Source: a virus
Virus record (IMG/VR): IMGVR_UViG_3300045116_000678
Coordinates: 18,903 to 82,902 of that record
Strand: one strand, 5' to 3'
DNA length: 64,000 bases
The notes under the pieces were generated by a model. The model was not told the origin of the DNA and searched no databases. It worked only from the letters and a program-made list of their open reading frames with translations. Below are positions 1-23,527 of the stretch, piece by piece. Every line of letters begins with the position of its first letter. Position 1 is the first letter of the stretch. The translations under genes and the position numbers were made by a program.

Positions 1-144
1 CCTCTGGAAGGGGTTGGCTCGATCGTACACCCGATTTAATTTTGTATGAAAAATATTCACAAAATAATTCGGTACCCCTTAGCCCCCCGGCAGCCTCGAG
101 TCTTGTAACCCTGCTACATTTCGTTGCAACAAACCGGAGCGAGC

Positions 145-2708: not shown

Positions 2709-2750
2709 GTTGTTTCCTTCGGCGGACGAAGTCCGCCCAGACTGAGCCCC

Positions 2751-2791
2751 ATCTTGGACTGTGGGCCTCAGGGGGGCGAACCCTAGAGGGG
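2751..2791 (-). promoter_or_regulatory. Late promoter copy 1
   Basis: CCCCTCTAGGG-N24-CAAGAT upstream of the ejection gene. Confidence 0.7.
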
Positions 2792-2793
2792 TG

Positions 2794-3819
2794 TCAGAGG
2801 CTGCTGCTGTCGTTACCGCTGATGGAAGCGCCGGCGCCAATGCCGTTCAGCGAGGCCGCCGCGGCGTCCGCAACCATCTTGGCGTGCGCGAGGGCCGCAT
2901 TCACGCGCTCGGTCAGCGTCTTGAGCTCGGCATCGAGGTTGGACCGCGAAGCGTCCAGCTTCAGCTGCGCATCGGTGATGGCAAGCCGCACTTTCGGCTC
3001 CAGCGCGGCCACCTCGGCTTGATACATCGCCGTGAGGCTGCGCGCGAGGTCGGTTTTCAGACCCACCAGGCCCGTCGCCAGCTGCATGGCAGTCTGTGGG
3101 CCCAGCACCAGCGTGCGGATGTAGTCGCCGGCGGCCGAGATGGCGCGCAGTCGAAGCTCGAGCACCTGCTGCACCGCGAACCGGGTGTTCTCCAGCTCGG
3201 CGCGGAAGGCGTTGATGGCGATGTCGCGGCTTTGCCCGGCCAGCTGGCGGCTGGCGTCGAGCCTGATGCCCTGCACGGCGCCTACCAGCGCACCAGGTGG
3301 AAGCGGGAAGCCGCGGTTGGCCCACGTGGCCATGGCCTCCGCCTCAGCCTGCGCGCTTTGCGCCAGGAAGCGGGCCTTGTCGCGCTCCCAGATCTGCCGC
3401 TCCACCTCGGCGTCGACGCCGGTGCCGCCGTCGATCGCGCGCTCCAGCCACGCCAGCGCCTTGTCCCAGAACGGCCCGGTGGGGAAGTTCTGCGACAGGA
3501 AGTCCTTGAAGCCCTGCTCGATCAGGTTCCCGATCTGCGCGTAGGCCTCGTCGTAGATCTCACGACCCTCTTCCGGGTCGGTGAGCGGCAGGTCGGGCTT
3601 CTCGGGCGGCAGATAGGAGGTATCCAGCACCGGCCCGGTGAGCTGCGGGGCATCCTCGGCCTCGGCCGCCGCGGCGTTGATGGCCGCGATCGCGTTGGTG
3701 AACCAGTTTTGCGCGTTCTCCCACTTGGCGTTGATGATGTAGGCGACGGTCGTTGGCGCTCCGACCCCGCCGCCTGGCTCGGGTACGGGGACGATGCCGC
3801 CAGGGGGTACGGTTGCCAT
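2794..3819 (-). CDS. Virion structural protein (helical)
   Basis: 341-aa ORF with GGAG RBS in tail operon. Confidence 0.65.
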   Translation of the reverse strand: MATVPPGGIVPVPEPGGGVGAPTTVAYIINAKWENAQNWFTNAIAAINAAAAEAEDAPQLTGPVLDTSYLPPEKPDLPLTDPEEGREIYDEAYAQIGNLIEQGFKDFLSQNFPTGPFWDKALAWLERAIDGGTGVDAEVERQIWERDKARFLAQSAQAEAEAMATWANRGFPLPPGALVGAVQGIRLDASRQLAGQSRDIAINAFRAELENTRFAVQQVLELRLRAISAAGDYIRTLVLGPQTAMQLATGLVGLKTDLARSLTAMYQAEVAALEPKVRLAITDAQLKLDASRSNLDAELKTLTERVNAALAHAKMVADAAAASLNGIGAGASISGNDSSSL

Positions 3820-3820
3820 G

Positions 3821-5296
3821 TCAAATTCTCCGGGTCAGGGCGAGCGGCAGGAAGTCGAGGCTGTCCACCTCGAATCGTGCGCCGTGTTCGTTGCTCAGTT
3901 GCAGGGTGGCGTAGTTGGGCCGCAGGCCCTTGCCGAGGGTGATGCGCTGCTGCGCCATGTGCTCGCTGTAGCTGCGCGTGCGGTAGGTGTACGCCCGGCC
4001 CTCGCAGAGGATCCGCAGCAGCATGTGACCGGAGCCGGACACGCCCAGATAGGCCTGCCCCACCGTCATCTTGTTGCCCTTGGCGAGCGCGCGCTCTCCG
4101 AGGTCGACCACTGCGCGGATCTCCGCGCCGGCGTCCGTGTCGCCGCCCAGTTCGTGCAGGCCGGCCGTCGACGCGCCGAAGTAGCGCCCGCCGATGTTCG
4201 CCATGCTGGCAAACGGGAAGCGCGCGTAGGTGGTCGAGCCGAAGCCGTCGAGGTTCACCGCCCAGGCATCGCCGCCAGCGCCATCGCCTTCACCGGCGCC
4301 CCAGTCCGGATCGTCTTCGTGACCTTCGCCCGGATCGGTGCCTACCGCTGCCCTGGGCTCGATCGTGAACTCGAGGTCCAGATCCAGCAGCATGCGTGTG
4401 AAGGTTTCCAGCTGCGGGATGAGGCTGAAGTCGAGGTCGAGGTCCAGCCGCAGGCCCGGGTCCAGCGCGAGCGTGAAGTCCAGGTCCAGGTCGAGCGTCA
4501 GCGACTCCAGCAGCATCGGGCCGCCGTCCGGGTTTTCAGGTGCCGGCGGCACGGTGTTCTGCGTGAGCACCGGGTCGAACACCTCGTCGTCGGCCGAGTA
4601 GAGCGAGGCCTCCAGCCACAGCGCGGCCGGCAGGCTCGCGATGGTGGCCGTGTGCACGGTCGCGCCGTCCATCTTCCACGTGACGACGTCGCCCGTGCGC
4701 TCGATGCGGAACACGGTCGCATCGGTGTAGGGGCCGCCCGGCGCCACATAGGAGCCGCTGCGGTAGACGCGAGCGGTACCGGCCTGGCAGAGGAATGCCA
4801 CGTCGACGTTGTTCGCCGGGTAGAGGCCCGCGCCAGCGTCCGGCGCGTTCATGCCGACCATGGCGCCGGCATTGCTCGCCCTGGCCTTGAACTCGGCCAC
4901 GAAGTCGCCCACCACCACGGCCGAAGACCGTGCGCCGGCGTTCCAGCCGAGGTTGCGACCGGGCACCGCCACCGTCTGCACGATCGTGCGTGGCGGGATG
5001 GCAGGGGTGGGCGGCACCGGAGGCACCCACACGCTGTAGGTCTCGGTGCTGCACACCCACGTGCTCGTGGCGCCGCCGCCGCCATCGGGCACCCAGACCT
5101 GCCGAGTCCTGGGGCCGAGGGGCGTTTCCTCCGTCACCGCGACATAGCGGCCGGAGGTGTTGTACCGCAGGCCGCACACCTGCTGCGTGCGTGTCTCGTA
5201 GTGGCCGGCGACGCCCGGCGAGCCCGGGACGCCCGGGTCCGCCACGGTCTGCGTGACGAGCTCGAGGACCGGTTTCTTGAAGAGGCTGTTAGTCAT
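3821..5296 (-). CDS. Tail-associated virion protein
   Basis: 491-aa beta-rich ORF coupled to neighbours. Confidence 0.6.
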   Translation of the reverse strand: MTNSLFKKPVLELVTQTVADPGVPGSPGVAGHYETRTQQVCGLRYNTSGRYVAVTEETPLGPRTRQVWVPDGGGGATSTWVCSTETYSVWVPPVPPTPAIPPRTIVQTVAVPGRNLGWNAGARSSAVVVGDFVAEFKARASNAGAMVGMNAPDAGAGLYPANNVDVAFLCQAGTARVYRSGSYVAPGGPYTDATVFRIERTGDVVTWKMDGATVHTATIASLPAALWLEASLYSADDEVFDPVLTQNTVPPAPENPDGGPMLLESLTLDLDLDFTLALDPGLRLDLDLDFSLIPQLETFTRMLLDLDLEFTIEPRAAVGTDPGEGHEDDPDWGAGEGDGAGGDAWAVNLDGFGSTTYARFPFASMANIGGRYFGASTAGLHELGGDTDAGAEIRAVVDLGERALAKGNKMTVGQAYLGVSGSGHMLLRILCEGRAYTYRTRSYSEHMAQQRITLGKGLRPNYATLQLSNEHGARFEVDSLDFLPLALTRRI

Positions 5297-7603: not shown

Positions 7604-7607
7604 GGGC

Positions 7608-8018: not shown

Positions 8019-8020
8019 GG

Positions 8021-9238
8021 TCAGTTCTCCGTGATGAGCGGCCGGCGGCGCGCTTGGGTGGTCAAGGGCTGCACGCCCTGGCGGGTGTAGATGACGTGGG
8101 ACATGCCATCCCAGTCGCGAAAGAGGCACGCAGCGCGCGCCGCGTCGGCGAAGCGCACGGCGTCGTCTTGCACCGCCGTGGCGGTGCCGTCGCTGGCCCC
8201 GATCACCAGGCCCTTTGGCGACACCCAACAGACCTGCGTTTCGTCCGGGCTGCGCGCGCCGGATCCGGCCACGCCACCGAAGGGCAGGACGGGTACCGCC
8301 TGCGTGCCCATCAGGTCGCCCGCGAGCCAGTAGGTCTGGTCGGCGCACACGAACACGCCTCCGACGCACGGCTCCATGACGGTGATCGGGCCCGGCAGCG
8401 GGATGAAGCTCTGCGCAGGGTTGTAGAGCCCGTACCGGTACGGCTCGCTGAACAGCAGCGTGTTGCCGCGCGCCACCAGCATGCGGCCGTTGTAGTGCCG
8501 CACGATCTGGCCGGCCGGCAGCGGCTGCAGGAGCAGCGTCTCGCACCGTGGGCCCGCGCCTAGGCTGTCGACCGCGAGAGCGTTGCCGATCGGCTCCACG
8601 CGCGTGAGCACGTCGCCGTTCGGGCCGCTGGCGTAGGTCAGCGTGTCGGCCTGCAGGCCGGTGATGAAGAAGCCGCCGGCCTCGGGCAACACGACGCGCT
8701 GCACCGGTGTGGCGGCGCTTTCGGGATCCTGCGTCAGGCGCGTGAACGCGAACAGGTACTGGCCGGCTGCCATCGTGCCCTCGCCAGGGCGCGCGGAGAC
8801 GTTGGGTACCGGATTGGGCGCGGGTGCAGCCGGCATGCGGTCCTGGCCAGCGCTGATGCGACCGAGCGTCACGCCATCGGTCCAGTAGATGTCGCCCGTG
8901 GGCGCGCGCTCGAAAGACACCGGCTGGCCGCTCATGCCGTAGCGTACGACGGTGCGCTGCAGCGCCGCGCCTGATGTGCGCAGCTGCTCCAGATTGCCGT
9001 CGACCACAGCGTAGCCGTCCGGCTCGCCGTCACCCCAGACCGAGTGCGCCGGCGGCGTCAGGGGCGTGCTGTAGCCCTCCCGCAGACGAAAGAACCCGCC
9101 ATGGATGTCGATGTTCTCGCCGATGCGCAGGTAGGTGGCGCTGACGCGACCCTGCAGCGTGACGCCCAGCCGCGTCGCGTCAAGGCGATTGTTGACGCCA
9201 AGGAAGGTGCCGAGCGACAGGAGGGGTTTAGTAGCCAC
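8021..9238 (-). CDS. Tail nozzle/stabilisation-like protein
   Basis: 405-aa beta-rich; FLGVNN..ENIDI N-terminus; LLFSEP motif; follows adaptor gene. Confidence 0.6.
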   Translation of the reverse strand: MATKPLLSLGTFLGVNNRLDATRLGVTLQGRVSATYLRIGENIDIHGGFFRLREGYSTPLTPPAHSVWGDGEPDGYAVVDGNLEQLRTSGAALQRTVVRYGMSGQPVSFERAPTGDIYWTDGVTLGRISAGQDRMPAAPAPNPVPNVSARPGEGTMAAGQYLFAFTRLTQDPESAATPVQRVVLPEAGGFFITGLQADTLTYASGPNGDVLTRVEPIGNALAVDSLGAGPRCETLLLQPLPAGQIVRHYNGRMLVARGNTLLFSEPYRYGLYNPAQSFIPLPGPITVMEPCVGGVFVCADQTYWLAGDLMGTQAVPVLPFGGVAGSGARSPDETQVCWVSPKGLVIGASDGTATAVQDDAVRFADAARAACLFRDWDGMSHVIYTRQGVQPLTTQARRRPLITEN

Positions 9239-9245
9239 GGCGCCG

Positions 9246-9286
9246 AGTCTCCTGAGCGAACCGCGCGACGTCGAACCCTAGAGGGG
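9246..9286 (-). promoter_or_regulatory. Late promoter copy 2
   Basis: CCCCTCTAGGG-N24-GAGACT, 7 nt before the GTG at 9238. Confidence 0.7.
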
Positions 9287-9291
9287 TTGGA

Positions 9292-9990
9292 CTACCAGCA
9301 GCGATTCACATGCGGCTCGTCAGCCCTGCTGTCCTTGCGGAGGTCGGCGTCCGGCCGCAGGCCGAAGTACTGTTCGAACAGGCCCAGCTCCCGCGACGCC
9401 CGCGATGCATCGAGCGTGTCCGCGTCCTGCTTGCTGTACGCGCGATAGAGCGCCCAGTGAACGAGAAACCGGTGATGGACAGGCGCAACCTCGGGCTTGG
9501 CGTTCTTGTTGTCCGCGCTGAACGGCTTCAGCGGCAGCCGAAGGCCTTCGAGGTGCAGAACGTAGTCGCGGCTGATGAGCGCAGGCAGCAGGATCCGCGA
9601 ATCTTCCTGGATGAGGTGCCTGGGCGCGTCGCGCTCGGTGCGCCAGTCCGGGTCGATCTCGTTCATGCGATCGAGCGACACCACCTCCAGCACGCAGCCG
9701 CGGCGCTCGGTCGTCACGGGCACCGTCGTGAGGTCGGTCACCCGGAAGAGCTCGGCCCGCGTGATCTCGAAGAAGAGCGTGAACGGGTAGCCGGACTGGC
9801 CGGGCACCACGCGCACCGTGGTGGCGTCGGGCAGGAGGCGCTTGCGGATAGCGGCCTCCTCCTGCGCCTCGGTCAGCCAGCTAGCGACCGCGGTATCCGA
9901 CCAGAGGACGTCGTCGGAGCGCCCGGTGACGTCCCGCGCCTGGTCGTCCGAATCCTCGCGGAAGGCCGCGATCAGCTGTTCGAGCGTCAT
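9292..9990 (-). CDS. Head-tail adaptor protein
   Basis: MTLEQLI..FR..DD..LWSD..WL.EAQ.EA; LVHWALYRAYSKQD motif of podovirus adaptors. Confidence 0.7.
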   Translation of the reverse strand: MTLEQLIAAFREDSDDQARDVTGRSDDVLWSDTAVASWLTEAQEEAAIRKRLLPDATTVRVVPGQSGYPFTLFFEITRAELFRVTDLTTVPVTTERRGCVLEVVSLDRMNEIDPDWRTERDAPRHLIQEDSRILLPALISRDYVLHLEGLRLPLKPFSADNKNAKPEVAPVHHRFLVHWALYRAYSKQDADTLDASRASRELGLFEQYFGLRPDADLRKDSRADEPHVNRCW

Positions 9991-9991
9991 C

Positions 9992-10423
9992 TCAGACCGG
10001 GCCGAACTGGTCGATCAGGCCGATGACGCGCGAGCGCATGTTGTCCAGGCTGAGCGTCTTGGGCACCGTCTGGTCGTACTTCGTCTTCGCGAAGTCCTGC
10101 AGCGCGTCCTTGTCCATCAGCTGCACCTGGTCGCGCAGGTCTTGGAGCTTGGCTGCATTCGCCTCCTGCTCCTTGCGCTTCTGTTCGGCCTTGGCCAGCT
10201 TGTCCGCCGTATCGTCCTTGGTGGCGTCCGTCTTCGTCGGCTTCTTCGCGTCGGCGGGCGCCTGTTCGAAGACGTCCGTGTGACGGAGGAACTTGCGGCC
10301 GACCTCGGCGGGCACCTCTCGCACTTGGTCCGTGACGAAAGTGAGGCCAGTGCCGTAGTTGCGATCGGTGAACTCCGGCCGACGGCCGATGTACTTGACG
10401 TGGACCGTGATGGCGTCAGGCAT
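9992..10423 (-). CDS. Hypothetical head-region protein
   Basis: GAGGAG RBS; 143 aa. Confidence 0.65.
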   Translation of the reverse strand: MPDAITVHVKYIGRRPEFTDRNYGTGLTFVTDQVREVPAEVGRKFLRHTDVFEQAPADAKKPTKTDATKDDTADKLAKAEQKRKEQEANAAKLQDLRDQVQLMDKDALQDFAKTKYDQTVPKTLSLDNMRSRVIGLIDQFGPV

Positions 10424-10448
10424 GTGGAACTCCTCGAGATGGGGGAAA

Positions 10449-10472
10449 GGAAAGGGGCCGAAGCCCCTTCCC
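10449..10472 (-). terminator. Probable intrinsic terminator after head genes
   Basis: GGGAAGGGGC-TTCG-GCCCCTTTCC followed by TTT. Confidence 0.5.
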
Positions 10473-10486
10473 TACTGGCGTCGCGC

Positions 10487-10960
10487 TCAGCGCGGGCCGG
10501 TGAGCTCGCCGTACACCAGCACCTTGATGTCGCTGGCCTTGGCGTTGGCGGCACCGGCGATGGTGAGGATCAGGCGGGCGGGCTTCGGCAGCGTCACCAG
10601 CTTCGAGCCGGCGGCGCGCACGCGGCCGGCGGCGTTGAGTGCGAGGCCGGCGCCGAAGTAGGCAGCGTCCTGGGGCACGCCTGCGTCATCCACGCCGTCC
10701 TCGTACTTGAAGCCGAGCGAGCCGGTGACGGCGGCGGTCATCGCAGTGGTGATGAGCGCCTGGGCGTCCTCCAGGCGCATGCCCTCGGGCAGGCCGCCCA
10801 GATCCACGACGTCGCCGATGGCGAGCGCAGCTGCGGAATCCGAGTTGTCGGCAGAGCCGCTGGCCAGCGTCTTCAGGCCGAAGGCGAGCGTCGACAGGTT
10901 GCCGTAGGGGTTCGGGCCGAACTGACGGCCGCGGAAGTGCTTGAGCTTGATGGTTGCCAT
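10487..10960 (-). CDS. Capsid decoration/cement-like protein
   Basis: 157-aa beta-rich ORF directly after MCP; GGAGG RBS. Confidence 0.6.
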   Translation of the reverse strand: MATIKLKHFRGRQFGPNPYGNLSTLAFGLKTLASGSADNSDSAAALAIGDVVDLGGLPEGMRLEDAQALITTAMTAAVTGSLGFKYEDGVDDAGVPQDAAYFGAGLALNAAGRVRAAGSKLVTLPKPARLILTIAGAANAKASDIKVLVYGELTGPR

Positions 10961-11023
10961 GTTGGCCTCCAGGGAAGTGGGGGAGTCAGTGGGGCGGGCC
11001 GGCCGAAGCCAGCCCGCGGGCCA

Positions 11024-12319
11024 TCACTTGCGGGCGCCGATGATCGGGACCGCCGTGTCGATGACCGTCACGCCGTAGTCGGTGATTTCCTTGCCTTCGC
11101 CGGTGTCCACCTCGAAACGGATCTTCGAGACGCCGCGGATGGCGCCCAGCAGCAGTTCCACCTTGTCGCCGTGGTCCAGCTCCTTCTCGCTCCAGAAGAA
11201 CGGGATGCCGCCACGGTCTTCGCCAGCGCTGGCCATCGCTTCCGCGACCGCCTGGCCGCCGAGCAGGATGGCCCGGTCGATGGCGAAGTTGGTGCCGAAG
11301 CCGGCGGGCACGACGCACGTGCTTTCGGCCTCGCTGTCGAACGCTGCGCAGTAGCGGATCGTGTCGCCAGCGTAGAACCGGATGGGGCGGTTCTGCTTGA
11401 CGATCAGGATGCCGTTCCACAGACCCACGTCGCCGGTGAACAGCGGGTGGTTCTGCATGCGCGAGGCGCGGGCGAGCGCCGAGGCCTGGAACTGACGGAA
11501 GCTCGGGTCGGTGGCGAAGCCGCTGTACTGGGCGGGCGACACCAGCAGCACCCGCAGCGGGCTGTCGTCAGCGGCCGGATCGCCCTCGAACTTCACGACG
11601 GGCGGCGGCAGCGCGATCTGCTCCATGTAGGTGCGGACGGCGTCGACCGTGTCCATCTTGAACAGGTCGGTGGTCTGCAGGTCCACCTCGCCGGCGTTCA
11701 CCGTGAAGGGCTTGATGGCGCCGGCGTCGGCGATGAAGTGCCGGTTCTTGGTCGGCGCCTTCACGGGGTTCACCATGATCTCGGCGAAATCCGAATCGGC
11801 CTCGGTGGGCACGACCCACTCGATGTTGTTCTGGAAGCCACGGGCGCCGGCGGCATGGGCCAGCAGCGACTGGTCCACGTACTTGTCCATCAGGCCCTGC
11901 GCGACCGGGCGGCCGAGCGCGCGGAAGTCCGCCGGGCTGCGGATCTGCGTCATGACGTCGCCGAGGTCGACGGGGAAGCGCGCCTGGTTGACGCGCAGCT
12001 TGTCCTCGGACAGTTTCATGCCGACGCCACGGCCCTCGGCGACCTTGCTGCCCATGATCGGCTTGGCGCCGACCGGGTTCAGCAGGTGGAAGGTGACTTC
12101 GTCTCCGCGGTTCTTGCCGAGATCCTGGCAGCGCACGACGGGCATGTGCTGGGACGTCTGCTTGCGGATGGTGGCGACAGCGCCGGCCGTGCCCTTCGGC
12201 ATGGCACCCGTAAGGCGGTTCCAGGTGGAGTTCCGCTGGTTGTGGGTGGCGAACAGGCCGACCGCCTGTTGCACCAAGGCCTTCGGATCGCCGTAGGCCA
12301 TGTGGGTCTTCGTGGTCAC
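11024..12319 (-). CDS. Major capsid protein, N4-gp56/DUF4043 family
   Basis: DLGKNRGDEVTF, AEGRG, NHPLFTGDVGLWNGILI, RAILLGGQA, DYGV motifs. Confidence 0.9.
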   Translation of the reverse strand: MTTKTHMAYGDPKALVQQAVGLFATHNQRNSTWNRLTGAMPKGTAGAVATIRKQTSQHMPVVRCQDLGKNRGDEVTFHLLNPVGAKPIMGSKVAEGRGVGMKLSEDKLRVNQARFPVDLGDVMTQIRSPADFRALGRPVAQGLMDKYVDQSLLAHAAGARGFQNNIEWVVPTEADSDFAEIMVNPVKAPTKNRHFIADAGAIKPFTVNAGEVDLQTTDLFKMDTVDAVRTYMEQIALPPPVVKFEGDPAADDSPLRVLLVSPAQYSGFATDPSFRQFQASALARASRMQNHPLFTGDVGLWNGILIVKQNRPIRFYAGDTIRYCAAFDSEAESTCVVPAGFGTNFAIDRAILLGGQAVAEAMASAGEDRGGIPFFWSEKELDHGDKVELLLGAIRGVSKIRFEVDTGEGKEITDYGVTVIDTAVPIIGARK

Positions 12320-12372
12320 TGTGGACCTCCTTCAGTGGGACAGGCGCCACCTCCCGGTGGTGCCGTTGGCAA

Positions 12373-13455: not shown

Positions 13456-13499
13456 GCCTGTCCCGCCACATGTCGCCGTGGCCGCAAGGGGCAGCATTT

Positions 13500-13626
13500 G
13501 GGTGGCAGGCACGGGCCGAAGCCCGCGCCCACAGCCCTCCAGCTATGGGAACCTCCTCTCGGAGGCTTTGCCGCACCATCACGGTGGGGCGCTTCGCCTT
13601 CGGCTTTCGCGTCTGGCTTGGGCTGC
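13500..13626 (-). ncRNA. Structured 5' leader RNA of the scaffold-capsid operon
   Basis: GCAGCCC/GGGCTGT closing stem enclosing three hairpins, then a 10-bp TTCG hairpin. Confidence 0.5.
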
Positions 13627-13667
13627 ACTTTGCCGGCACGCGGCGTGATCTGGAAACCCTACAGGGG
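13627..13667 (-). promoter_or_regulatory. Late promoter copy 3
   Basis: CCCCTGTAGGG-N24-CAAAGT. Confidence 0.7.
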
Positions 13668-13797
13668 GGCAGCTTTGACTGTGAGTCGCGCAAGCCATCA
13701 CGAACGCGCCAGCGGCCCGGCGGTTTAGCCTTTAGCACTTTCGCTTGACTCAGGAGACCAAAAAGAGGATTCTCACCGCGAGGACAAGGAGTAGAGT

Positions 13798-14904: not shown

Positions 14905-15322
14905 CCCTAGCGCGGCCCGCGCGCTCGAGGATCTGCCTACACAGCAGCAACGCCGCGGCGGCGGGCCATGACGGGTTCGTGGGTGCGATGGGAAACGGGT
15001 TGTGCTCCCGGATGGACGCCTCGATGGCGATCGCCAGCCAGTACGGCATGGGCATCGGTTGCGGCGCGGGGCCCCGCATGGCCTCGGCAGGTCCGCCCAC
15101 CTCCAGCGGCTTGAAGACCTGCACGTCACCCCACCTGCCGAGTTCGCAGGCGATGAGCAGCGCGCCCTGCGGCGTGGCCGGCAACTTGTCCACCACCTCG
15201 CAGTAGTCGGGCAGAGCACCACCCTCGGATTCAAGGTGTGCGGCCAGCCAGGGCGGCACCATGATCTTGATCGGTTCGACTTCGTTCATGCGCGCAAAGC
15301 ACCAAGCCCTGTGGTCTGACAT
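14885..15322 (-). CDS. Hypothetical late protein (start uncertain)
   Basis: Only plausible ORF downstream of late promoter copy 4. Confidence 0.5.
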   Translation of the reverse strand: MSDHRAWCFARMNEVEPIKIMVPPWLAAHLESEGGALPDYCEVVDKLPATPQGALLIACELGRWGDVQVFKPLEVGGPAEAMRGPAPQPMPMPYWLAIAIEASIREHNPFPIAPTNPSWPAAAALLLCRQILERAGRARVSPRCS

Positions 15323-15413
15323 CCCCGGTAGCGGCCGGTCCCCTTGCGGGGTGGGATGCCAGAGCACAGGGCTCTGTGGTTGATCGTCTTGGCCGCTACC
15401 CGTCGATAGGCCA

Positions 15414-15454
15414 ATGGTCTTCCGGGGCGGCTGTGAAACCGAACCCTACAGGGG
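15414..15454 (-). promoter_or_regulatory. Late promoter copy 4
   Basis: CCCCTGTAGGG-N24-GACCAT. Confidence 0.7.
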
Positions 15455-15472
15455 TGCTGTCAGAATCCTCCG

Positions 15473-16285
15473 ATGCCCAAGAGAAACGCGAAGTTCTCCG
15501 TTCTACAGCCCGACCGCCTAAAGGAACTGGTGGAGGCAAATCAACGAGCGTTGAACAATCTCGCGGACGCACTTGAGAGGTTTTCTCCGGAACAACTGCC
15601 TTTCCTTGAGCCGGTGCGAGCCTCAGCAAATAGGGTTGCTCAGACGGCGCGTGAAGTCTCCGAGGCGTGGGATCAACTACCCAATGAGTACCGAGCCGCC
15701 TTGCTTGTTCTCGCGCACGAAGGGTGGTATTTCGACCTGGAAGCGATGGAGTTCGGAACGCCTCTTGAAATCGCAAACAGCTTTCAGTCCGGCGATAGAG
15801 AGACAGCCGAGACTCATCTTTGTGACCACTATCGCGATCGTCTAAATGAGATCGAACAGCAACTGACGAAGTGGTTTCCCTCGCGTTTGGCCATATTCAG
15901 AGATGCGTTTCGCGCCCATCGGCAGGGGCTCTATTTCGCGTCAATCCCTCTGTTGCTGTCGCAGATCGACGGCGTGTGCCATGACCTCTCAGACTATTAC
16001 TTCTTCACGAAGCCACGCGGTGAAAGACGGACTGGCGTGTCGCCATTCATCGAGCAGAAAGGTCTAAGCGAAATCAACTTGGCGTTGCTTGCGCCGTTGA
16101 TGGCTGAGCACAGCATCCTCCTAGGTGAAAACCGACGCCCAGCAAATTTCTCCCAGTTGAATAGACATCAGGTATTGCATGGGGAGTCGCTGGACTATGG
16201 AAGCGAGCTCAACAGCTTGCGCTCCATCTCGCTCCTTCACTATCTGGCGTCCTGCTTGCACTACTTCGTCCTTCGCAAGAATTAG
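15473..16285 (+). CDS. Moron with HEPN-like RxxxxH motif
   Basis: SIPLLLSQIDG...LNRHQVLHG; lower GC; opposite strand. Confidence 0.65.
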   Translation: MPKRNAKFSVLQPDRLKELVEANQRALNNLADALERFSPEQLPFLEPVRASANRVAQTAREVSEAWDQLPNEYRAALLVLAHEGWYFDLEAMEFGTPLEIANSFQSGDRETAETHLCDHYRDRLNEIEQQLTKWFPSRLAIFRDAFRAHRQGLYFASIPLLLSQIDGVCHDLSDYYFFTKPRGERRTGVSPFIEQKGLSEINLALLAPLMAEHSILLGENRRPANFSQLNRHQVLHGESLDYGSELNSLRSISLLHYLASCLHYFVLRKN

Positions 16286-16300
16286 GCTTGCACGTTCCGA

Positions 16301-18619
16301 TCAGGCGGCTTCCAGGTTGTCCGAGGTCCGCGCCGTCTCGATGCCCTGCCCTCCGTCGCCTGGCTCAGCTGCGCGCGGTGGGAATGTCGGACTGGTGTTC
16401 TCGCGCACGGGCGGCGCCGCAGCTGCCTCTTCCTGGGCGCCGGGCGCCGGCAGCATGGCCGGGCCCTGGCCCTGGATGTAGGGCGACTTGATGTTCATCG
16501 CCGCGGTCTGGGCAGGCACCGGGAAGTTCGGATCGTCGCCGCCGGGGTTGGGCCGCTGGTAGCCGGCGCCCTGCATGATGGCGTCGGCGATCGGCGCGAT
16601 CATGGGCATCTGGGCAACCTGAGCGCCGCCCTGCATCGCGGCGAAGGCCGCCTGCACGCCCACCTGCACCGCATCGGCCATCAGCTTGCGGATCTCGGCG
16701 TCGGTCTTCCGCTCCTTCATGTCGAGCTCGCGGGCCTTCAGGTCGTTGCCGGCCTTCACGAGTGCCTGCTGCACGGCTTCCTGGATGCGTCGCTCCACCT
16801 GCTCCGGCGTCTCTTGCGACCCGGCTGCCCGGATGGCCTCCACAACCTCGCGCTTGAACGGCACGTCCATGAGGCTGACCATGAACGGCATGACGGCGGC
16901 CTGGTACTGCTGCGGCAGGGACTTGACCGCCTCCGACATCGCGTTGAGCTGCTGGCCGCGGTAGCTGTTGGTGCTGGGCACGTCCTCGAGGGCCACCTTC
17001 AGGCGCGTGCGCTGGAGGTCGTTCGACAGGTAGGTCTGCCCGGTGACAGGATCCTGCTCGGGGCGGTTGATGACAACGGTGCGATCCTTGCGCACCGCGT
17101 CGCCCTCGATCACGACCACGGTCTGCTGGCTGCCGAGGTCTTCGACGATCATCGAGAGGAGCATTTCGCCAACCAGCGTACGGCCGGCGCGGAAGTTGTC
17201 CATGATGCGGCCGAGCGACTGGTTCGATTGCTCGACCTGGGTCTGCTCCTGGAGTCCAGATCGCGCGGTGCCCTTCTGCCCCATGAAGCCGGCCGTGACC
17301 GTGCTGACGCGCTGGATCGCGCCGCGGCTGTCCTCCAGCATCTTGTAGTGCTGCTCGGTCAGGGTGTAGTCGCGCTTCACTTCGAACCGCGCGCCTGGCT
17401 GCGCCATGTGCTGGGCATTGAGCACGACGTCGGCGTCGACGCGCGCGACCATGCGGCGGAACTGTGCGTCGGTCATATCCACCGCGCCCTTGGTGCGCTC
17501 GGTGCGCACTGCGGCCATACCCCAGCGCAGCTTGGCGATGCCGCTGTTCAGGCTGTCCTGCGGGAAGATCATGTCCCGCACGTAGCCGTACGGCACACGG
17601 GTCTCGTCCTCAGCGAAGCCGAAGAATGGGGCGTAGGGGAAGAAGCGATGGGTGTATGGGCTCGGCCCGTCGTGCAGGCAGTGAGGGCCAAGCCAGTAGC
17701 TGCGCCGCACGCGAGCCACAATCGCCCTTTGAGCCCGCACCAGCCCGCGCGCCAGGCTGATGTTGTGGGCAGGGTTGTCCTCGTCGTACTCCACGACACG
17801 GCCGTCCGGGGCGAAGAGGACGACGGCGTCCACCCAGCGGCGGTACCACAGCTCCGCCAGGCAGATCTCTCGGCTGGTCGGGTTGTACCAGCGGTCCTCG
17901 CTGATCGTCCATGCACGTGCCTGATCCCAAGCGTTGCGCAGCCCGGTCGATGCGCCGCCATCGAGAAAGCCTTGGGAGTAGAGGCTCCACCAGCCGCTGC
18001 CGTCCTTGCCCACTACGTCGATGAGTTCCGCATGCTCGGGGAATGAGCGCTTGAGGCGATCCGGCTGGAGCCACCGGGCCCGGCGGAGCCAGCGCCATTC
18101 CTCGGGGTCATCCGACTTCATGTCCCAGTGGATCTCGTTGCGGTGCACGGCGCGGCACCGATACGGATACTTGAACGGGTCGCTCTGCCGCGACACCTCC
18201 ACCCAGCCGATGCCCACGCCGATCTGGGGGCGGAAGGCGTCGCTGCAGGCGCGATCGGCCTTGGATTCGCGCTCGGCCTGGTTCAGCTTGTAGTTCAGCG
18301 CGTCAGCGACCTCTTGGCCGCCGGGCTCTCCGTTCGGGGTGACGCGCCAGTCGGTGCGGATCGTGGCCTCGTAGCCCTGGATGCTGAGCAGCGCCGGGCC
18401 CACCAGGTTCTCGACTGCCGGCGGGATGCCCAGCTGCTGCTGGCGGCGCAGCAGCTCGCTGTCCAGCTGGTTGCCGTCGGCGTAGTCCATCTCCTTGTCG
18501 GCGGTACCGCGCCACGGCGGCTGCATCTCGACCTCGTGCATGAACTCGGTGTATTCCGTCAGCGTCAGCGCCAACGGATCGGCGCCGGGCGCCGCAGGAG
18601 GGGTGGTGTGTTGCAGCAT
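16301..18619 (-). CDS. Portal protein
   Basis: After TerL; DYADGNQ, IGVGIGWVEV, PYGYVRDM..PQD..N motifs; GAGGA RBS. Confidence 0.88.
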   Translation of the reverse strand: MLQHTTPPAAPGADPLALTLTEYTEFMHEVEMQPPWRGTADKEMDYADGNQLDSELLRRQQQLGIPPAVENLVGPALLSIQGYEATIRTDWRVTPNGEPGGQEVADALNYKLNQAERESKADRACSDAFRPQIGVGIGWVEVSRQSDPFKYPYRCRAVHRNEIHWDMKSDDPEEWRWLRRARWLQPDRLKRSFPEHAELIDVVGKDGSGWWSLYSQGFLDGGASTGLRNAWDQARAWTISEDRWYNPTSREICLAELWYRRWVDAVVLFAPDGRVVEYDEDNPAHNISLARGLVRAQRAIVARVRRSYWLGPHCLHDGPSPYTHRFFPYAPFFGFAEDETRVPYGYVRDMIFPQDSLNSGIAKLRWGMAAVRTERTKGAVDMTDAQFRRMVARVDADVVLNAQHMAQPGARFEVKRDYTLTEQHYKMLEDSRGAIQRVSTVTAGFMGQKGTARSGLQEQTQVEQSNQSLGRIMDNFRAGRTLVGEMLLSMIVEDLGSQQTVVVIEGDAVRKDRTVVINRPEQDPVTGQTYLSNDLQRTRLKVALEDVPSTNSYRGQQLNAMSEAVKSLPQQYQAAVMPFMVSLMDVPFKREVVEAIRAAGSQETPEQVERRIQEAVQQALVKAGNDLKARELDMKERKTDAEIRKLMADAVQVGVQAAFAAMQGGAQVAQMPMIAPIADAIMQGAGYQRPNPGGDDPNFPVPAQTAAMNIKSPYIQGQGPAMLPAPGAQEEAAAAPPVRENTSPTFPPRAAEPGDGGQGIETARTSDNLEAA

Positions 18620-18627
18620 GTTCGTCC

Positions 18628-20214
18628 TCAAAGACGCCAATCAGGCGCCATTCCTTCTTCTTCGTCGGCCGTGGCGGTGGCCGAATCGAGCATCCCGAGT
18701 TCCTTGGCCTGAGCCCACTGTCGGAAGGCGTCCGCGCCCTCGCTGCAGAGGTTCCCCTTCTCGGGCTGGTCCACGAACCGGCTCTGCGCGCGATTGAACT
18801 TCTTGCGGTAGCCATCCAGGCGCTGGATGCCCAGGGCGCAGGCCTTGCGGTCCAGGAAGGCGCCCTTCATGTGCTTGCGCGTCTGGTGGATGCCGGTCAT
18901 CAGCTCTGTGATGCGCGGCACGATCTCGAAGCGCTGGCCGGGCATCAGGTCGGCCAGCATTTCTTTCGTGCTGCGGTTGTAGTCGCCCAGGCGCTTGTGG
19001 TCAGCGTCGTGCGGCAGGAAGTGACGGCCGAAGACATAGCCGCGCTTCTGCAGCTCGGTGACGTAGTGCCGCAGGTCCTCGCCGCGGGCTTCGTAGTAGC
19101 CGATGAAGCGATCCTGGCCGCGCAGGTCCTGGTGGAACCACACCGCGCACCCGTCGCTGTTGCCGATGTCCCAGAAGGTGTTCACCGGCAGGTCCAGCAC
19201 CGGCACATCCGTGATGCCGCCGCGCTTGCGCAGCGCGGTCATGTCCTTGGCGTAGTAGTTCCCCTCGGTGCTGATCTGGAAGGCCTCGACCGGCGTCGAC
19301 GGGTACTCCTGCCACATCCGCTCCTCGCGCCCGGAGAAGTCGGCCTCCATCGTGGCGACATACCAAGCGCGCTGGTCGATGTCGATGGTGCAGTCCATCT
19401 CGACCTCGACCCGATCGAAGTAGTCGTGCTGCTCCGTGGTGATCGCCACGGACCGCGAGTCCATGCGGTACTTCGGCTCCTGCCACCAAGCGTAGAAGTG
19501 GAACCGGTAGTCGCGCGGCGTGAGGGGCAGCTTGCCAGCGTGCGCAGCCTCGGCGCGCTGCACCATCTCGAAGAACTCGCCTTCCCTGCCCTCGGCCGTG
19601 CTCTCGATGACCAGGATGCCGTTGAGCGGCACGGCGGGGATGGAGCCGGTGACGACCTCGGCCGCCTTGTCGGGGAACTTGGCGCAGATCTTCCCGAACT
19701 CGCTGACGTGCAGGCGGTGGATCGTGCCCGACCGCATGGACGTGGCGACGCGCACGCTGCTGTTGTTGTGCGCGAAAAGCAGTTCTGTCGCGCTGTCGCG
19801 TGCGAGAGGGAACCGCTCACGGATCTCGACTGGCAGGCTGTCGTAGGCGAACTTGACCTTGTCCCGGAAGATGACTTCGGCAGCCTCGCGGTCCTGGGCG
19901 ATGATCCCGCAGCGCTGGTCGGAATTGAACAGGGCGTGGTCCAGCCAAAGGATCGCGATCAGGGTGGTGAAGCCCAGCTGCCGCGCCTTCAGGATCAGGT
20001 TCCGGTGCCACAGACGACGCACGAACCGCCGCTGAGCGCGGTTGGGCCGGAAGGGCATGACCATGGCGTCGTCGCCGTCGTCGTCGCCCTTCACCATGAT
20101 CTTGTAGAGGCAGCCGCTGAAGACGCGCCACTCCGGGTCCGCCAGGCAGCGCGCCAGCTCCGCGGCGTTGGTCGGCAGCGGAAGGAGCGGCTCGTCGTGC
20201 GTGATGGTGGTCAC
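18628..20214 (-). CDS. terL: Terminase large subunit
   Basis: Walker A LKARQLGFTT, Walker B LHVSE, IESTAEG, nuclease WDIG..D, LPHD, GADAFR. Confidence 0.95.
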   Translation of the reverse strand: MTTITHDEPLLPLPTNAAELARCLADPEWRVFSGCLYKIMVKGDDDGDDAMVMPFRPNRAQRRFVRRLWHRNLILKARQLGFTTLIAILWLDHALFNSDQRCGIIAQDREAAEVIFRDKVKFAYDSLPVEIRERFPLARDSATELLFAHNNSSVRVATSMRSGTIHRLHVSEFGKICAKFPDKAAEVVTGSIPAVPLNGILVIESTAEGREGEFFEMVQRAEAAHAGKLPLTPRDYRFHFYAWWQEPKYRMDSRSVAITTEQHDYFDRVEVEMDCTIDIDQRAWYVATMEADFSGREERMWQEYPSTPVEAFQISTEGNYYAKDMTALRKRGGITDVPVLDLPVNTFWDIGNSDGCAVWFHQDLRGQDRFIGYYEARGEDLRHYVTELQKRGYVFGRHFLPHDADHKRLGDYNRSTKEMLADLMPGQRFEIVPRITELMTGIHQTRKHMKGAFLDRKACALGIQRLDGYRKKFNRAQSRFVDQPEKGNLCSEGADAFRQWAQAKELGMLDSATATADEEEGMAPDWRL

Positions 20215-21149
20215 GGCGGATCCTTGCGACCCGTGTCGTGTTCGGGATCCTGGGCGACCGGCTTGAAGCCGTTCGATGTGCCGCCGGCGATTGCGTGCAG
20301 CAGGCTGGCCAGCGGGTCGACGCGCTGCTGGTTGTCCTTCTCGTACAGCCCGAGGTGCTTCGCCAGCTTCTCGATGGCGTCCAGCTTGGAGTGCATCTTG
20401 ACCTCAATGCCCTCCTTGGTCTGCTTGACGCCGGCGTACAGAGCCAGCGCGGCCGGAGACAGGCGGCGGGTGTCGCACACGAAGGTCTGCCCGAAGCCCT
20501 TGCCGAAGCAATGCGGGCATCCGGGGTGCGGAGCGCGATGCGGGTTGAAGCCGATGCCGCCTTTCGGGTCGAATTCCTCAGGCCCCTTGTTCTCCTTCAT
20601 CAGGCGCATCTGGTCGGCAGCGAACTCTTCTGCGGTGCGCTGGTAGCCGAAGCCCTCGCCGTGGCAGTGCCGGCAACAGCCCACCACGTATTCCACCAGC
20701 TCGCGAGCGTCAGCCGTGGCGATCAGCGCCAGCTCTCGGACCACGCGGTCCGCAGTGATGTGCGTGCGCTCCTGCTGCTGCTGCCGGGCCTCAGCGATGG
20801 CAGCCTGGATGTACGGTTTTGACAGGTTCTCCGACGCCATCTGGCGGGCCGACTCTGTGCTGTATCCGGCCCGCTCGGCCGCCTTGGTGGCATTCAGGTC
20901 CACCAGGTACTCGTCCACAAACCGCTGCTGTTTGGGCGTGAGGGCCACAGGCGCCGTTGGCTGCGTGCTATCGATTTCGGAGCGCTTCGCGACCTTCTTC
21001 GCTGCTGGCTTCGCCTTCGCCTCGACCACCGCTGCCGGATTCGGCTTCTTGCGCGCGAGCACGACCGCTGCCTTCTTGGGGGCGGCGGTGGGCTTGGTGG
21101 TCTTCTTGGGAGGAGGCGCCGGCTTCTTGGCCGGCTTGCGGGTTGCCAT
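20211..21149 (-). CDS. terS: Terminase small subunit with Lys/Ala-rich N-terminus and Zn-ribbon insert
   Basis: LTPKQQRFVDEYLVDLNATKAAERAGYS; CCRHCHG...CPHCFG; KLAKHLG. Confidence 0.9.
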   Translation of the reverse strand: MATRKPAKKPAPPPKKTTKPTAAPKKAAVVLARKKPNPAAVVEAKAKPAAKKVAKRSEIDSTQPTAPVALTPKQQRFVDEYLVDLNATKAAERAGYSTESARQMASENLSKPYIQAAIAEARQQQQERTHITADRVVRELALIATADARELVEYVVGCCRHCHGEGFGYQRTAEEFAADQMRLMKENKGPEEFDPKGGIGFNPHRAPHPGCPHCFGKGFGQTFVCDTRRLSPAALALYAGVKQTKEGIEVKMHSKLDAIEKLAKHLGLYEKDNQQRVDPLASLLHAIAGGTSNGFKPVAQDPEHDTGRKDPP

Positions 21150-21157
21150 GGCGCGCG

Positions 21158-21198
21158 AGTGTTCCTGCACCTTCACCCACGGTCGAACCCTATAGGGG
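21158..21198 (-). promoter_or_regulatory. Late promoter copy 5
   Basis: CCCCTATAGGG-N24-AACACT, 8 nt before terS ATG. Confidence 0.7.
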
Positions 21199-21226
21199 GC
21201 GGCAGGCTGTCCGGCAAAATCGACCC

Positions 21227-21814: not shown

Positions 21815-21833
21815 TAGTAGCAACTGCCGAGAC

Positions 21834-21866
21834 AAAGAAAGCCCGCCAGGCGCAGGCCCGGCGGGC
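21834..21866 (-). terminator. Intrinsic terminator
   Basis: GCCCGCCGGGC-CTGC-GCCTGGCGGGC-TTTCTTT. Confidence 0.7.
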
Positions 21867-22082
21867 GAATCACGCGAGACAGGATCGCGCGAGGAGACAT
21901 CTGGCCGGCGCAGGCGCCGGGGTACGGCCAATCCGACTACGTGCGCAGTGCACGCTTGGCCGTGCGGTTCTCATCCCGCCCTGCATCCCCCGGGATGAGC
22001 GAGGGGTAATGATGGAGTGGCTTGCCCCCCACTCCCGCGCCAGGGCTGGCACTCAACTCGGGGACCGTCGTTGCCGACCGAG
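21834..22082 (-). ncRNA. Putative ~250-nt multi-hairpin late ncRNA
   Basis: Bounded by late promoter copy 6 and terminator; consecutive hairpins; no convincing ORF. Confidence 0.55.
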
Positions 22083-22430
22083 CCCTGATAGTCGCCGCGC
22101 TGGGTGTTGAGCCGAACCCCTACAGGGGGCCGACAAGGTGGCTGGGGATGTCCGGCCGAAGCGCGCAGCCACGATGGCGCGGCCCACGGCCATGCGCATG
22201 GTCTGGCCCTCGATCCACGGCCCGGCTGGGATGCTGGCGCCAGGCCGGCCGACGACCACTGCGCACCAGATCCAGTCTTTCCCGGGCATGGGTGCCGCCT
22301 GGATGGCTAGGCGTTCCATCACCATGTCGATGTCGGGCCAGCGGGTGAGGTACTGGGTGCCGGCCGGCGCGTCCAAGGCCTGGGCGATCAGGGCTTCGAG
22401 GGTCTTGCTGGGGAGCTCGGAGACTTGCAC
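22053..22430 (-). CDS. NinX/DUF2591-like protein
   Basis: GGGAGAGA RBS; G.T...AVGRAIVAARFG motif. Confidence 0.55.
   Translation of the reverse strand: MQVSELPSKTLEALIAQALDAPAGTQYLTRWPDIDMVMERLAIQAAPMPGKDWIWCAVVVGRPGASIPAGPWIEGQTMRMAVGRAIVAARFGRTSPATLSAPCRGSAQHPARRLSGLGRQRRSPS
22088..22128 (-). promoter_or_regulatory. Late promoter copy 6
   Basis: CCCCTGTAGGG-N24-GACTAT. Confidence 0.7.
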
Positions 22431-22453
22431 CTGCCGATTCTCTCCCGCGTGCC

Positions 22454-22531
22454 TGGTGCCGCCACCACGGATTCGAACCTGGGGCCCTTCCCTTACAGGG
22501 GGAACGCTCTACCGGACTGAGCTATGACGGC
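22454..22531 (-). tRNA. tRNA-Thr(TGT), variant
   Basis: GCCGTCA/TGGCGGC acceptor, GCTC/GAGC D-stem, TTCCC-CCTGTAA-GGGAA anticodon arm, TTCGAAT T-loop, ACCA. Confidence 0.8.
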
Positions 22532-22538
22532 TGTGGAG

Positions 22539-22653
22539 TGATGGTGGCCGGTGCTGATCCCCGGCGCGGCTTCTGCAGGTCGGAGCGAATCACGCCTTGC
22601 GATCCATGCCGCCCCTCTCCGCATCGGGGCGCCCAGCATGCGCGTTCACCATC
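22539..22653 (-). ncRNA. tRNA-like RNA with complementary D- and T-like loops
   Basis: GATGGTG/CACCATC stem; GCGC-ATGCTGG-GCGC; GCCGG-GGATCAGCA-CCGGC. Confidence 0.55.
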
Positions 22654-22927
22654 GTGTCGAGGCACTGTGCGCTCCCCCAGGAACCCCCGGCGGCAATGCC
22701 TCGGCATGATGGCGCCCCGTCTTCCCGGGGCGCCAGCGCTGTTTTGCATCACGCCCGGGCAACTGGCCCAGTCTCAACGCTCTGCATGGGCCTCACCCCA
22801 ACCGGGGCATTTGCCGCGCCTTCCCTCGCAATGGGTGCCGGTTGCCGCCCGGCGCCGTCGCAGGTGTCCACGTTGGGGTCTGCGGCAGCGGCTTACCCCT
22901 TGCGAGGGCGCTCTCTCTACGGTTGTC

Positions 22928-23004
22928 TGGTTGCGGGAACCGGACTTGAACCGGCGGCCTCCGGGGTATGAGCCCGGCGCTCTAACCAACTGAGCTAGCC
23001 CGCG
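22928..23004 (-). tRNA. tRNA-Met(CAT), initiator-like
   Basis: 77 nt; C1:A72 mismatch; GGG/CCC anticodon stem; CAT; TTCAAGT; ACCA. Confidence 0.88.
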
Positions 23005-23527
23005 GCGCGAAGTCTCCAGCGTTGGCGGCCGCCTTCACAGCCCTACAGGGGGTGCCGAACAGCTGCCCCTGCTCCGGGTCGACCTTCTCGGCAAGGGCCT
23101 GCACCTGGCGGCGCAGTCGGAGGATCTCCTGCGCTTGCTCCGCGGCGATGGTGGCCATGTTGCGGCCCGTCTCGATCGCGGCAGCCTGCGCGGCGGCGCC
23201 GGCCTGCAGGTTGGCCAGCATGCGGTCCTCCCGCGGCGTCAGGTTCAGCACCTCGTCGCCGATTTCGAGCTTCACCATGCCATCCGGCATGACGGTCTTG
23301 CTCATCGGCCGCGCCGGCGGGTGCCGCGGTGCCGGCACGTAGACGCCGCGCTGCACCCGCAGGATGGCTCCATCGTCGGCCAGGGTGCCGAGGCGGTCAT
23401 CGATCACCGTGAGCTTGAGTCCAGTGAGCCCGGCGAGCGTCTCCCGGGTCACGATCTGTTCCTGGGCGTGCAGATCCTGCACGGCCTCCATAACCAGGGC
23501 GGTGGTCGATTTGCGGGTGTCAGCCAT
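22982..23527 (-). CDS. Winged-helix DNA-binding protein; candidate late activator
   Basis: GAGGAG RBS; VTRETLAGLTGLKLTVIDDRLGTLADDGAILRVQRGVY; last gene of early operon. Confidence 0.65.
   Translation of the reverse strand: MADTRKSTTALVMEAVQDLHAQEQIVTRETLAGLTGLKLTVIDDRLGTLADDGAILRVQRGVYVPAPRHPPARPMSKTVMPDGMVKLEIGDEVLNLTPREDRMLANLQAGAAAQAAAIETGRNMATIAAEQAQEILRLRRQVQALAEKVDPEQGQLFGTPCRAVKAAANAGDFAPRASSVG
23011..23051 (-). promoter_or_regulatory. Late promoter copy 7
   Basis: CCCCTGTAGGG-N24-GAGACT, 6 nt before tRNA-Met nucleotide 1. Confidence 0.72.

Follow-up and report, generated by a model that had tools for sequence, protein, structure and literature searches.

A repeated two-part element on the late strand of an F116-like prophage

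The stretch of DNA analysed here (the window; 64,000 nucleotides, bases 18903-82902 of the 82.9-kb IMG/VR provirus record IMGVR_UViG_3300045116_000678) has a G+C content of 65% and carries a prophage whose late region resembles Pseudomonas phage F116 and its relatives (Hollowayvirus), with about 75% DNA identity over the portal and terminase genes. The nearest protein relatives of the window genes originate from Variovorax. The late genes occupy the minus strand from about 23 kb down to the start of the record and encode the small and large terminase subunits (TerS and TerL), the portal, a protein in the scaffold position, the major head protein, the head closure protein Hc3, several structural proteins and a 2814-aa polyvalent protein. 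Set between these genes is a repeated element composed of a short box, CCCCTNTAGGG, and a downstream hexamer of the form nAnnnT, which an original prediction from the sequence had proposed to be a multi-copy late promoter. The copies within the window are listed below in order of position, together with the genes and open reading frames (ORFs) that adjoin them and the gene for the candidate activator, P0001.

2744..2791, minus strand: predicted late promoter copy; box CCCCTCTAGGG at 2791-2781, TTCG at 2780-2777, hexamer CAAGAT at 2756-2751, predicted transcript start at about 2744; leader type, with the gene beginning at ATG 2708 behind GAAGGAAA and encoding a 650-aa protein (phrog_11341)
8021-9238, minus strand: gene for head closure protein Hc3, behind the next copy
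9238..9286, minus strand: predicted late promoter copy; box at 9286-9276, hexamer GAGACT at 9251-9246; leaderless type, with GTG 9238 lying 7 nt past the hexamer
13620..13667, minus strand: predicted late promoter copy; box at 13667-13657 followed by TTTC, hexamer CAAAGT at 13632-13627; a leader of about 165 nt, then the scaffold-position gene (ATG 13455) and the major head protein gene (11024-12319)
15407..15454, minus strand: predicted late promoter copy; box at 15454-15444, hexamer GACCAT at 15419-15414; then conserved non-coding CGACGGGTAGCGGCCAAGAC and a small ORF ending at 14885
20211..21149, minus strand: small terminase gene (terS), with a predicted leaderless ATG
21149..21198, minus strand: predicted late promoter copy before terS; box CCCCTATAGGG at 21198-21188, hexamer AACACT at 21163-21158; ATG 21149 lies 8 nt past the hexamer and has no Shine-Dalgarno sequence
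21841..21866, minus strand: strong intrinsic terminator closing the ORF-less unit
22080..22128, minus strand: predicted late promoter copy heading an ORF-less unit of about 240 nt; box at 22128-22118, hexamer GACTAT at 22093-22088
22928..23004, minus strand: initiator-type tRNA-Met, with C1 opposite A72, a GGG:CCC anticodon stem (three G:C pairs) and encoded CCA
23004..23051, minus strand: first predicted late promoter copy, within the 3' end of the candidate activator gene; box at 23051-23041, hexamer GAGACT at 23016-23011; the tRNA 5' end at 23004 lies 6 nt past the hexamer, a layout shared by the relatives L044, L062 and L124
22982..23527, minus strand: gene for the candidate late activator P0001 (181 aa), the last early gene, in the position of lambda Q

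All seven predicted boxes (plus-strand positions 2781, 9276, 13657, 15444, 21188, 22118 and 23041) are present and read CCCCTNTAGGG on the minus strand, and all seven are followed 24 nt downstream by the expected nAnnnT hexamer at the coordinates given above. The count of seven is correct for the window but has to be raised to nine for the whole provirus, which contains two further copies upstream of the window (record positions 8681 and 17177). Across the 82.9-kb record CCCCTNTAGGG occurs nine times on the minus strand and not once on the plus strand. The pattern CCCTNNAGGG was found nine times in the window against 1.17 expected, a number reached in none of 100 shuffles, and a position-weight scan gave no further copies in the early region, as had been predicted. 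Loose matches at 50535 and 52448 were considered as members of the set and rejected: they have neither the CCCC start nor the hexamer, they lie outside the prophage, and their flanks are either without a TTCG-like sequence (50535) or only loosely similar to it (52448).

The arrangement of the two parts is highly regular. The hexamer starts exactly 24 nt past the last G of the box in all nine provirus copies, and the calculated chance of finding both A at its second and T at its sixth position (A2 and T6) is about 0.03 per copy, A and T each making up about 17.5% of this DNA. TTCG directly follows CCCCTNTAGGG in five of the seven window copies. Every one of the nine lies just past a stop codon or within the tail of a gene, ahead of a late unit, and at three of the seven in the window a start codon or tRNA 5' end is located 6-8 nt past the hexamer. 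Leaderless messages at these three are implied by the starts predicted earlier, although this had not been spelled out. As regards the genes downstream, the predicted assignments hold for terS, the major head protein, Hc3 and tRNA-Met, but the products named earlier as 'ejection gene' and 'scaffold' belong to PHROGs of unknown function.

Conservation among relatives and restriction to prophages

The two-part design recurs at about 190 distinct sites in related phages and prophages of Beta- and Gammaproteobacteria. A first set of sites was collected by scanning viral contigs for a 15-mer of the motif, which yielded more than 119 loci; A2 and T6 stood at offset 24 in 80 of the 126 viral-contig matches, and in nearly all of the matches that came from DNA with a G+C content above 57%. 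The second set was found through the candidate regulator protein rather than through the motif, to avoid circularity, and comprised 47 bacterial genome loci (from Variovorax, Pseudomonas, Acinetobacter, Thauera, Zoogloea, Psychrobacter and other genera) and four phage records. In this second set the loose box CCNNTNTARGG was present 81 times on the strand of the regulator and eight times on the other, and 75 of the 81 boxes displayed A2 and T6 at offset 24 (49 boxes) or 25 (26 boxes), against a background of about three per offset. The boxes on the regulator's strand lie predominantly downstream of it (64 versus six upstream), at a median distance of about 1 kb. In F116 itself six or seven degenerate copies are found. 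They are confined to the late strand and to junctions between genes, among them those ahead of terS, the scaffold-position gene and the holin gene; the counterpart of the copy at 13620..13667 is located at position 28681 of that phage, and further boxes lie at 45731 and 59202.

Comparison of these sites changes the description of the box. The near-palindrome CCCT-NN-AGGG, initially taken as its key feature, is not kept; relatives carry TAAGG or CTACTGTAAGG, and because their boxes break the symmetry, the conserved unit is an asymmetric core, CCCCTNTA(G/A)GGTT(C)G, to which the palindrome is incidental. Phages with more AT have CCCCTGTAAGGTTCG (Shewanella Y11) or CTACTGTAAGGTTAG (Pseudoalteromonas Y7) as their box. 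Hexamers from AT-richer hosts also come closer to the -10 consensus, being GAAAAT and TACATT in the phages of Shewanella and Pseudoalteromonas, and TAACAT and TAAATT in Psychrobacter. The consensus over 187 pooled sites reads (C)CCCCT(G/C)TA(G/a)GGTT(C/t)G(A)CC, N, (G/A)A(c)(A)(C/a)T, with T at hexamer position 1 in only 5% of the sites.

A box that was common or randomly placed in host genomes had been named beforehand as a finding that would speak against a promoter. The signal is in fact confined to the prophage. In five host genomes that contain the regulator (3.4-6.0 Mb), all of the two-part matches (23/23) fall within one stretch of 27-44 kb beside it and on one strand, while a reversed control pattern gave a single match in the same genomes. 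In 120 further genomes of the same bacterial family there were 16 scattered two-part matches and 14 of the reversed control, with no cluster. Four of 121 genomes contain the regulator, and in each of the four, variants of the box follow it on the late strand. Box and regulator protein are also both present in Acidovorax phage AP1, where a putative tape measure protein in the record's annotation suggests a tailed morphotype other than that of F116, and they occur together in three out of three complete motif-bearing viral records tested.

Evidence for activator-dependent late promoters

A2 and T6 are the two indispensable positions of the sigma70 -10 element, and the distance that separates them from a DNA box is fixed in the repeats. 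No canonical sigma70 promoter was found on the late strand. If transcription starts 7 nt past the hexamer, the box lies at about -47 to -37 and the following TTCG(AC) at -36 to -31, a location which we infer to be that of a class II activator. Intrinsic terminators end within 60 nt upstream of the box at 28 of 192 sites, compared with 3.1 expected. In the window, the ORF-less unit is closed by the terminator at 21866-21841 and terS therefore needs a promoter of its own, for which the box at 21198 is positioned. Sites with longer leaders possess ordinary Shine-Dalgarno sequences, for example GAAGGAAACAAC-ATG at 2708.

Two other explanations of the parts were considered and rejected. The hexamers might be mere Shine-Dalgarno sequences, which GGAGACT resembles, but GGA stands too far from ATG, and the same hexamer is found at the same spacing before the tRNA and the ORF-less unit. 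Nor can the box form a hairpin of its own, as a 2-nt loop is impossible.

Restriction to the late strand, location at gene junctions, fixed spacing in independent relatives, confinement to prophages and the failure to find either a Sigma70_r2 domain in the record or a Q at the Q position all support the idea of a multi-promoter, activator-dependent late regulon with a sigma70-like -10 element and no -35 element, as originally predicted. Judging from the sequence comparisons, the repeats are likely to be late promoters that lack a -35 element and are used by the host sigma70-type RNA polymerase with the help of an activator, most probably P0001.

A candidate activator in the Q position

The prophage had been said to contain no recognisable Q, and indeed no Q-family protein was found at the Q position. 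In the whole record the Phage_antitermQ family (PF06530) gave a single signal of 16 bits, below the cut-off and outside the prophage. This signal (window 47923-48138, minus strand) belongs to a 300-aa ORF within an island of lower G+C content beyond the tRNA-Asn gene.

The gene for P0001 follows ninB- and YbcO-like genes. The protein falls in PHROG 8117 (function unknown). Its homologues, among them gp37 of F116 (53% identity), number more than 400 and all are named 'hypothetical'. A Pfam scan with E values up to 1 returned only sub-threshold matches to AbiEi_4, SlyX, RepL and a coiled coil, with no match to the Mor/C or Q families, and NCBIfam returned nothing. A structural model built with 45 homologues has a predicted local distance difference test score (pLDDT) of 84, compared with a pLDDT of 61 without an alignment, and displays a winged helix (residues 4-69), three strands (75-96), a long helix (98-148) and a disordered tail. 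The modelled winged helix superposes on DtxR/IdeR with a root mean square deviation of 1.3-1.4 Å over about 60 residues (Foldseek) and matches many winged-helix regulators (VIA Z 10.4-8.6); this is a generic fold, and it therefore says nothing about specificity. Fold searches matched residues 2-70 only, leaving the beta unit and the long helix without a match; a profile search of solved structures gave nothing and Atlas only 'hypothetical' clusters. P0001 is the sole protein with a DNA-binding fold that keeps the Q position, it accompanies the box in otherwise dissimilar phages, and it is probably the late activator that binds the box.

The mechanism that we propose is as follows. The 15-bp box, at about -47 to -33, would take the place of the -35 element and be followed after 24, sometimes 25, nt by a weak -10 hexamer (rAmAmT; A2 and T6 invariant, T1 almost never present), with the RNA starting 7-8 nt past the hexamer. 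A phage protein, most probably P0001, would bind the box and recruit the polymerase. Nine units would in this way be switched on together once early transcription is done, covering the initiator tRNA, the RNA unit, terS-terL-portal, the small ORF, scaffold-capsid, head closure and tail genes, the giant polyvalent protein and the distal genes. At the leaderless sites the first base of the RNA would be that of the start codon.

Several observations weigh against this proposal. A winged-helix dimer would be expected to need more than the short conserved box, and the relatives do not retain the half-symmetry of this box. The recognition helix of P0001 carries an invariant DDR, which is unusual for a helix that reads DNA. 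The tRNA transcript would begin with C, a poor initiating base, and leaderless mRNAs are, to our knowledge, uncommon in these hosts. Under the pattern used, 15 of the 47 regulator loci are without a box; these may have variant boxes or none. Finally, the co-occurrence of box and protein is a property of the prophage as a whole, so another early gene could encode the factor.

The last point leads to an alternative that we consider improbable, although worth keeping in view, namely that the late promoters are read by a different phage factor, alone or with P0001, and that P0001 does something else. Such a factor might be another early protein, for instance from a pair that appropriates sigma, as MotA/AsiA does in T4, or a highly divergent sigma. 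Co-occurrence does not tell P0001 apart from its companions in the early module, some dozen early ORFs are without an assigned function, and the distance between box and hexamer would also suit a factor that replaces sigma region 4. However, no Sigma70_r2 domain was detected anywhere in the record in a six-frame search to which the controls responded, although a very divergent factor could escape it, and it is P0001 that keeps the Q position as the only DNA-binding-fold protein and accompanies the box in AP1 as well as in the three complete motif-bearing viral records tested.

Leaderless messages and inverted repeats at the predicted start

An ATG is located 6-8 nt past the hexamer in 41 of 102 sites of the first set (42 if GTG is included), and an ATG or GTG in 68 of 187 sites of the larger set. 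Because the start codon coincides with the expected start of the RNA, the messages at these positions, about 40% of the sites, are predicted to be leaderless. Sites of this type, represented in the window by GTG 9238 and ATG 21149, have no usable Shine-Dalgarno sequence. The start codons are real all the same: the N-terminus of TerS, MATRKPAKK, is kept from the predicted leaderless ATG in ten phages, and the third codon position varies most within this segment (2.11 versus 0.91 and 0.40). In F116, terS (F116p38) is annotated from 22851, but the frame is open from an ATG at 22776, 48 nt past a box, and encodes a Lys/Pro-rich N-terminus like those of the relatives; the annotated start is thus probably 25 codons too late.

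The initiator-type tRNA-Met is the first product of the predicted promoter set, and tRNA genes occupy the corresponding place in three other phages. One could speculate that a phage initiator tRNA favours the translation of leaderless late messages. The ORF-less unit that comes next (247 nt) folds no better than shuffled sequences (z -1.2). Its 3' end (21834-21899, minus strand), spanning a CUCCUC stretch and the terminator, shows a full-length match to Rfam RF02278, a Betaproteobacteria toxic small RNA, which at 32.9 bits (E 2e-4) is below the gathering score of 50. The non-coding CGACGGGTAGCGGCCAAGAC (window 15380-15413, minus strand) that comes after the promoter at 15454 is kept in the related phages L117, L124, L107 and L062 and may be a leader or a small RNA.

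Inverted repeats are a further feature of the region around the start. In the leaderless type the hexamer lies between their two arms, which reach up to the ATG or take it in, as in CCCGCC-GGAAGACT-GGCGGG-ATG at record position 17177, and stems of at least five pairs are present in 26 of 42 such sites against about three expected. In the leader type a segment farther downstream, often the Shine-Dalgarno/ATG region, complements the promoter core (-14 to +1); stems of at least seven pairs were found in 56 of 119 sites versus 26 expected, whereas a control arm taken from the spacer gave 52 versus 50. The Acinetobacter prophages contain a stem of 14-15 bp that pairs the -10 region with the Shine-Dalgarno sequence and ATG and shows compensating changes. 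The repeats span the predicted start, and the stems can form only in RNA that reads through from upstream. Some sites in the Acinetobacter prophages L144 and L146 also have a hairpin resembling a terminator, AATAAAAAGGC...GCCTTTTTATT, and its 5' arm shares bases with the -10 hexamer; this could stop read-through RNA and be absent from RNA started locally.

Structures of this kind raise the question of whether the whole element acts in RNA. It would then serve for the processing or stabilising of a single long late transcript or for loading ribosomes onto it, and the hairpins beside the start codons would be the functional part. The stems around the hexamer, their counterparts joining the core to the Shine-Dalgarno/ATG region, and the fact that genes without a Shine-Dalgarno sequence need some route to translation would all fit. 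We nonetheless regard an RNA signal as very unlikely, since the hexamer keeps exactly the two sigma70 -10 bases at a fixed spacing from a box that has no conserved structure, the same signal stands before a tRNA and before an ORF-less unit ended by a terminator, and the terminators just upstream of many boxes would cut a single long transcript there. Wobble counts reveal no clear sense-strand bias (17 G:T in 185 pairs versus 9 A:C in 143) and leave the choice between RNA and DNA undecided.

That a polymerase encoded by the phage might start within the box, as happens in T7 (TATAGGG), with the hexamer in the transcribed leader, can be given hardly any credence: the core TNTAGGG does resemble the initiation region of T7-group promoters, and the phiC725A counterpart of the giant virion protein has been linked to the C-terminal domain of N4 gp50 (PMC5217972), but only about eight bases are conserved upstream of the GGG, the giant protein has InPase, MuF_C and LPD1 domains and no polymerase domain that we could find, a search of the record with PF00940 gave nothing (the control genomes being silent too), and both the fixed-offset A2/T6 and the start codons 6-8 nt later would be left unexplained.

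A possible connection to the sliding clamp and to translation

The disordered tail of P0001 contains QGQLF (residues 153-157), which resembles the beta-clamp-binding consensus QL[SD]LF. Clamp-like motifs are present in 57 of 118 homologues compared with 4.7 in shuffles, and at 14 of 34 genome loci; about half of the family is without one. The form varies, with QGELL at the very C-terminus in Acinetobacter and QRDLL, QMSLL, QKGLF or QMxLxL elsewhere. In phage T4, the gp33/gp55 pair binds the beta sliding clamp. Phage Mu C requires the host beta clamp by way of QHDLF/QPDLF motifs (PMC12867686), to which the QGQLF, QGELL or QRDLL in the C-terminal tails of many P0001-family members may be compared.

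An extension of the proposed mechanism can be formulated on this basis, although as a combination of two parts it is doubtful. In the first part, the C-terminal QxxL(F/L) of the activator would attach it to the beta sliding clamp of the host, thereby coupling late transcription to replication. In the second, the stems formed in read-through RNA would bury the start codon or the Shine-Dalgarno sequence, and translation of the first gene in a unit would require RNA that began at that unit's own promoter. The leaderless design, together with a phage initiator tRNA expressed from the first late promoter, would aid translation of such RNA. If clamp tethering proves true, an unrelated protein family would have reached replication-coupled late transcription independently, which would extend the Mu C result to another activator family and suggest that coupling to replication is a common phage strategy.

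Comparison with known systems of late-gene control

The closest analogue is the late system of phage Mu, and by analogy the design is Mu C-type. Mu likewise has several late promoters (with C: Plys, PI, PP and Pmom; with Mor: Pm) that show a recognisable -10 and no -35, an activator site placed over the -35 region (centred at -43.5 in Mu and, as predicted, near -42 in the F116-like prophage) and an activator made at the end of the preceding phase. This layout of a -10 without a -35 has been described for the Mu late promoters (PMC2582627). The systems differ in that P0001 has no sequence or Pfam relation to Mor/C, with a predicted N-terminal winged helix instead, and in that the prophage has another box sequence, nine sites rather than four, many predicted leaderless messages and inverted repeats over the start.

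In gene order the resemblance is to lambda Q, the P0001 gene being last in the early rightward operon, after the ninB-like genes and just before terS; however, P0001 has no Q family match and is accompanied by nine dispersed sites instead of a single PR' with a terminator. RinA and Ltr are small phage activators whose genes directly precede terS and on which the operon for packaging and lysis depends (PMC3152322). The candidate gene studied here is also small and immediately upstream of terS, but RinA/Ltr serve one promoter in Firmicutes phages whereas the F116-like prophage has many predicted promoters and belongs to Proteobacteria, and no homology was detected between them.

Dedicated activators such as P2 Ogr/P4 Delta and P1 Lpa drive sets of late promoters that lack a -35 and carry a conserved upstream element. 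These are set apart by zinc-finger or other folds, other sequences and sites at about -55 (Ogr) or about -22 (Lpa). Winged-helix activators of the PhoB/OmpR type bind at the location of the -35 (pho boxes) and contact sigma region 4. A winged-helix protein in the -35 position is what is predicted for P0001, but PhoB/OmpR proteins are response regulators on direct repeats, whereas P0001 has no receiver domain and its putative target is a single short box.

No published description of late-gene control in the F116 group was found in the literature searched. Searches by motif sequence retrieved only unrelated papers, and the phiC725A paper makes no mention of promoters. What appears to be new, as far as can be judged from sequence, is the box, a protein unrelated to Mor/C, Q, Ogr and RinA, the large set of nine sites and the predicted leaderless messages. 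F116 is a classic generalised transducing phage of P. aeruginosa, and prophages related to it are common in Pseudomonas, Acinetobacter, Variovorax, Thauera and other Proteobacteria. For this widespread group the analysis provides a precise promoter consensus with predicted start sites, a named candidate from a family of hypothetical proteins and corrected gene starts, such as that of F116 terS, and thus a candidate system of late-gene control that can be tested by simple experiments, easily so in F116.

Other features of the prophage

The remaining landmarks of the prophage are as follows.

Record 8686-17130 (upstream of the window), minus strand: 2814-aa polyvalent virion protein with InPase, LPD1 and MuF_C domains
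124-759, plus strand: moron-like ORF within the late region
13798-14904, plus strand: moron-like ORF within the late region
34645-35337: cI-like repressor
43.9-45.2 kb: integrase-sized ORF and tRNA-Asn

The polyvalent protein gene has one predicted late promoter copy ahead of it and another directly past its stop codon. The moron-like ORF at 13798-14904 sits in a patch of 59% G+C, and each of the two ORFs of this kind, which oppose the surrounding late genes in orientation, is succeeded in the late direction by a fresh copy of the predicted late promoter.

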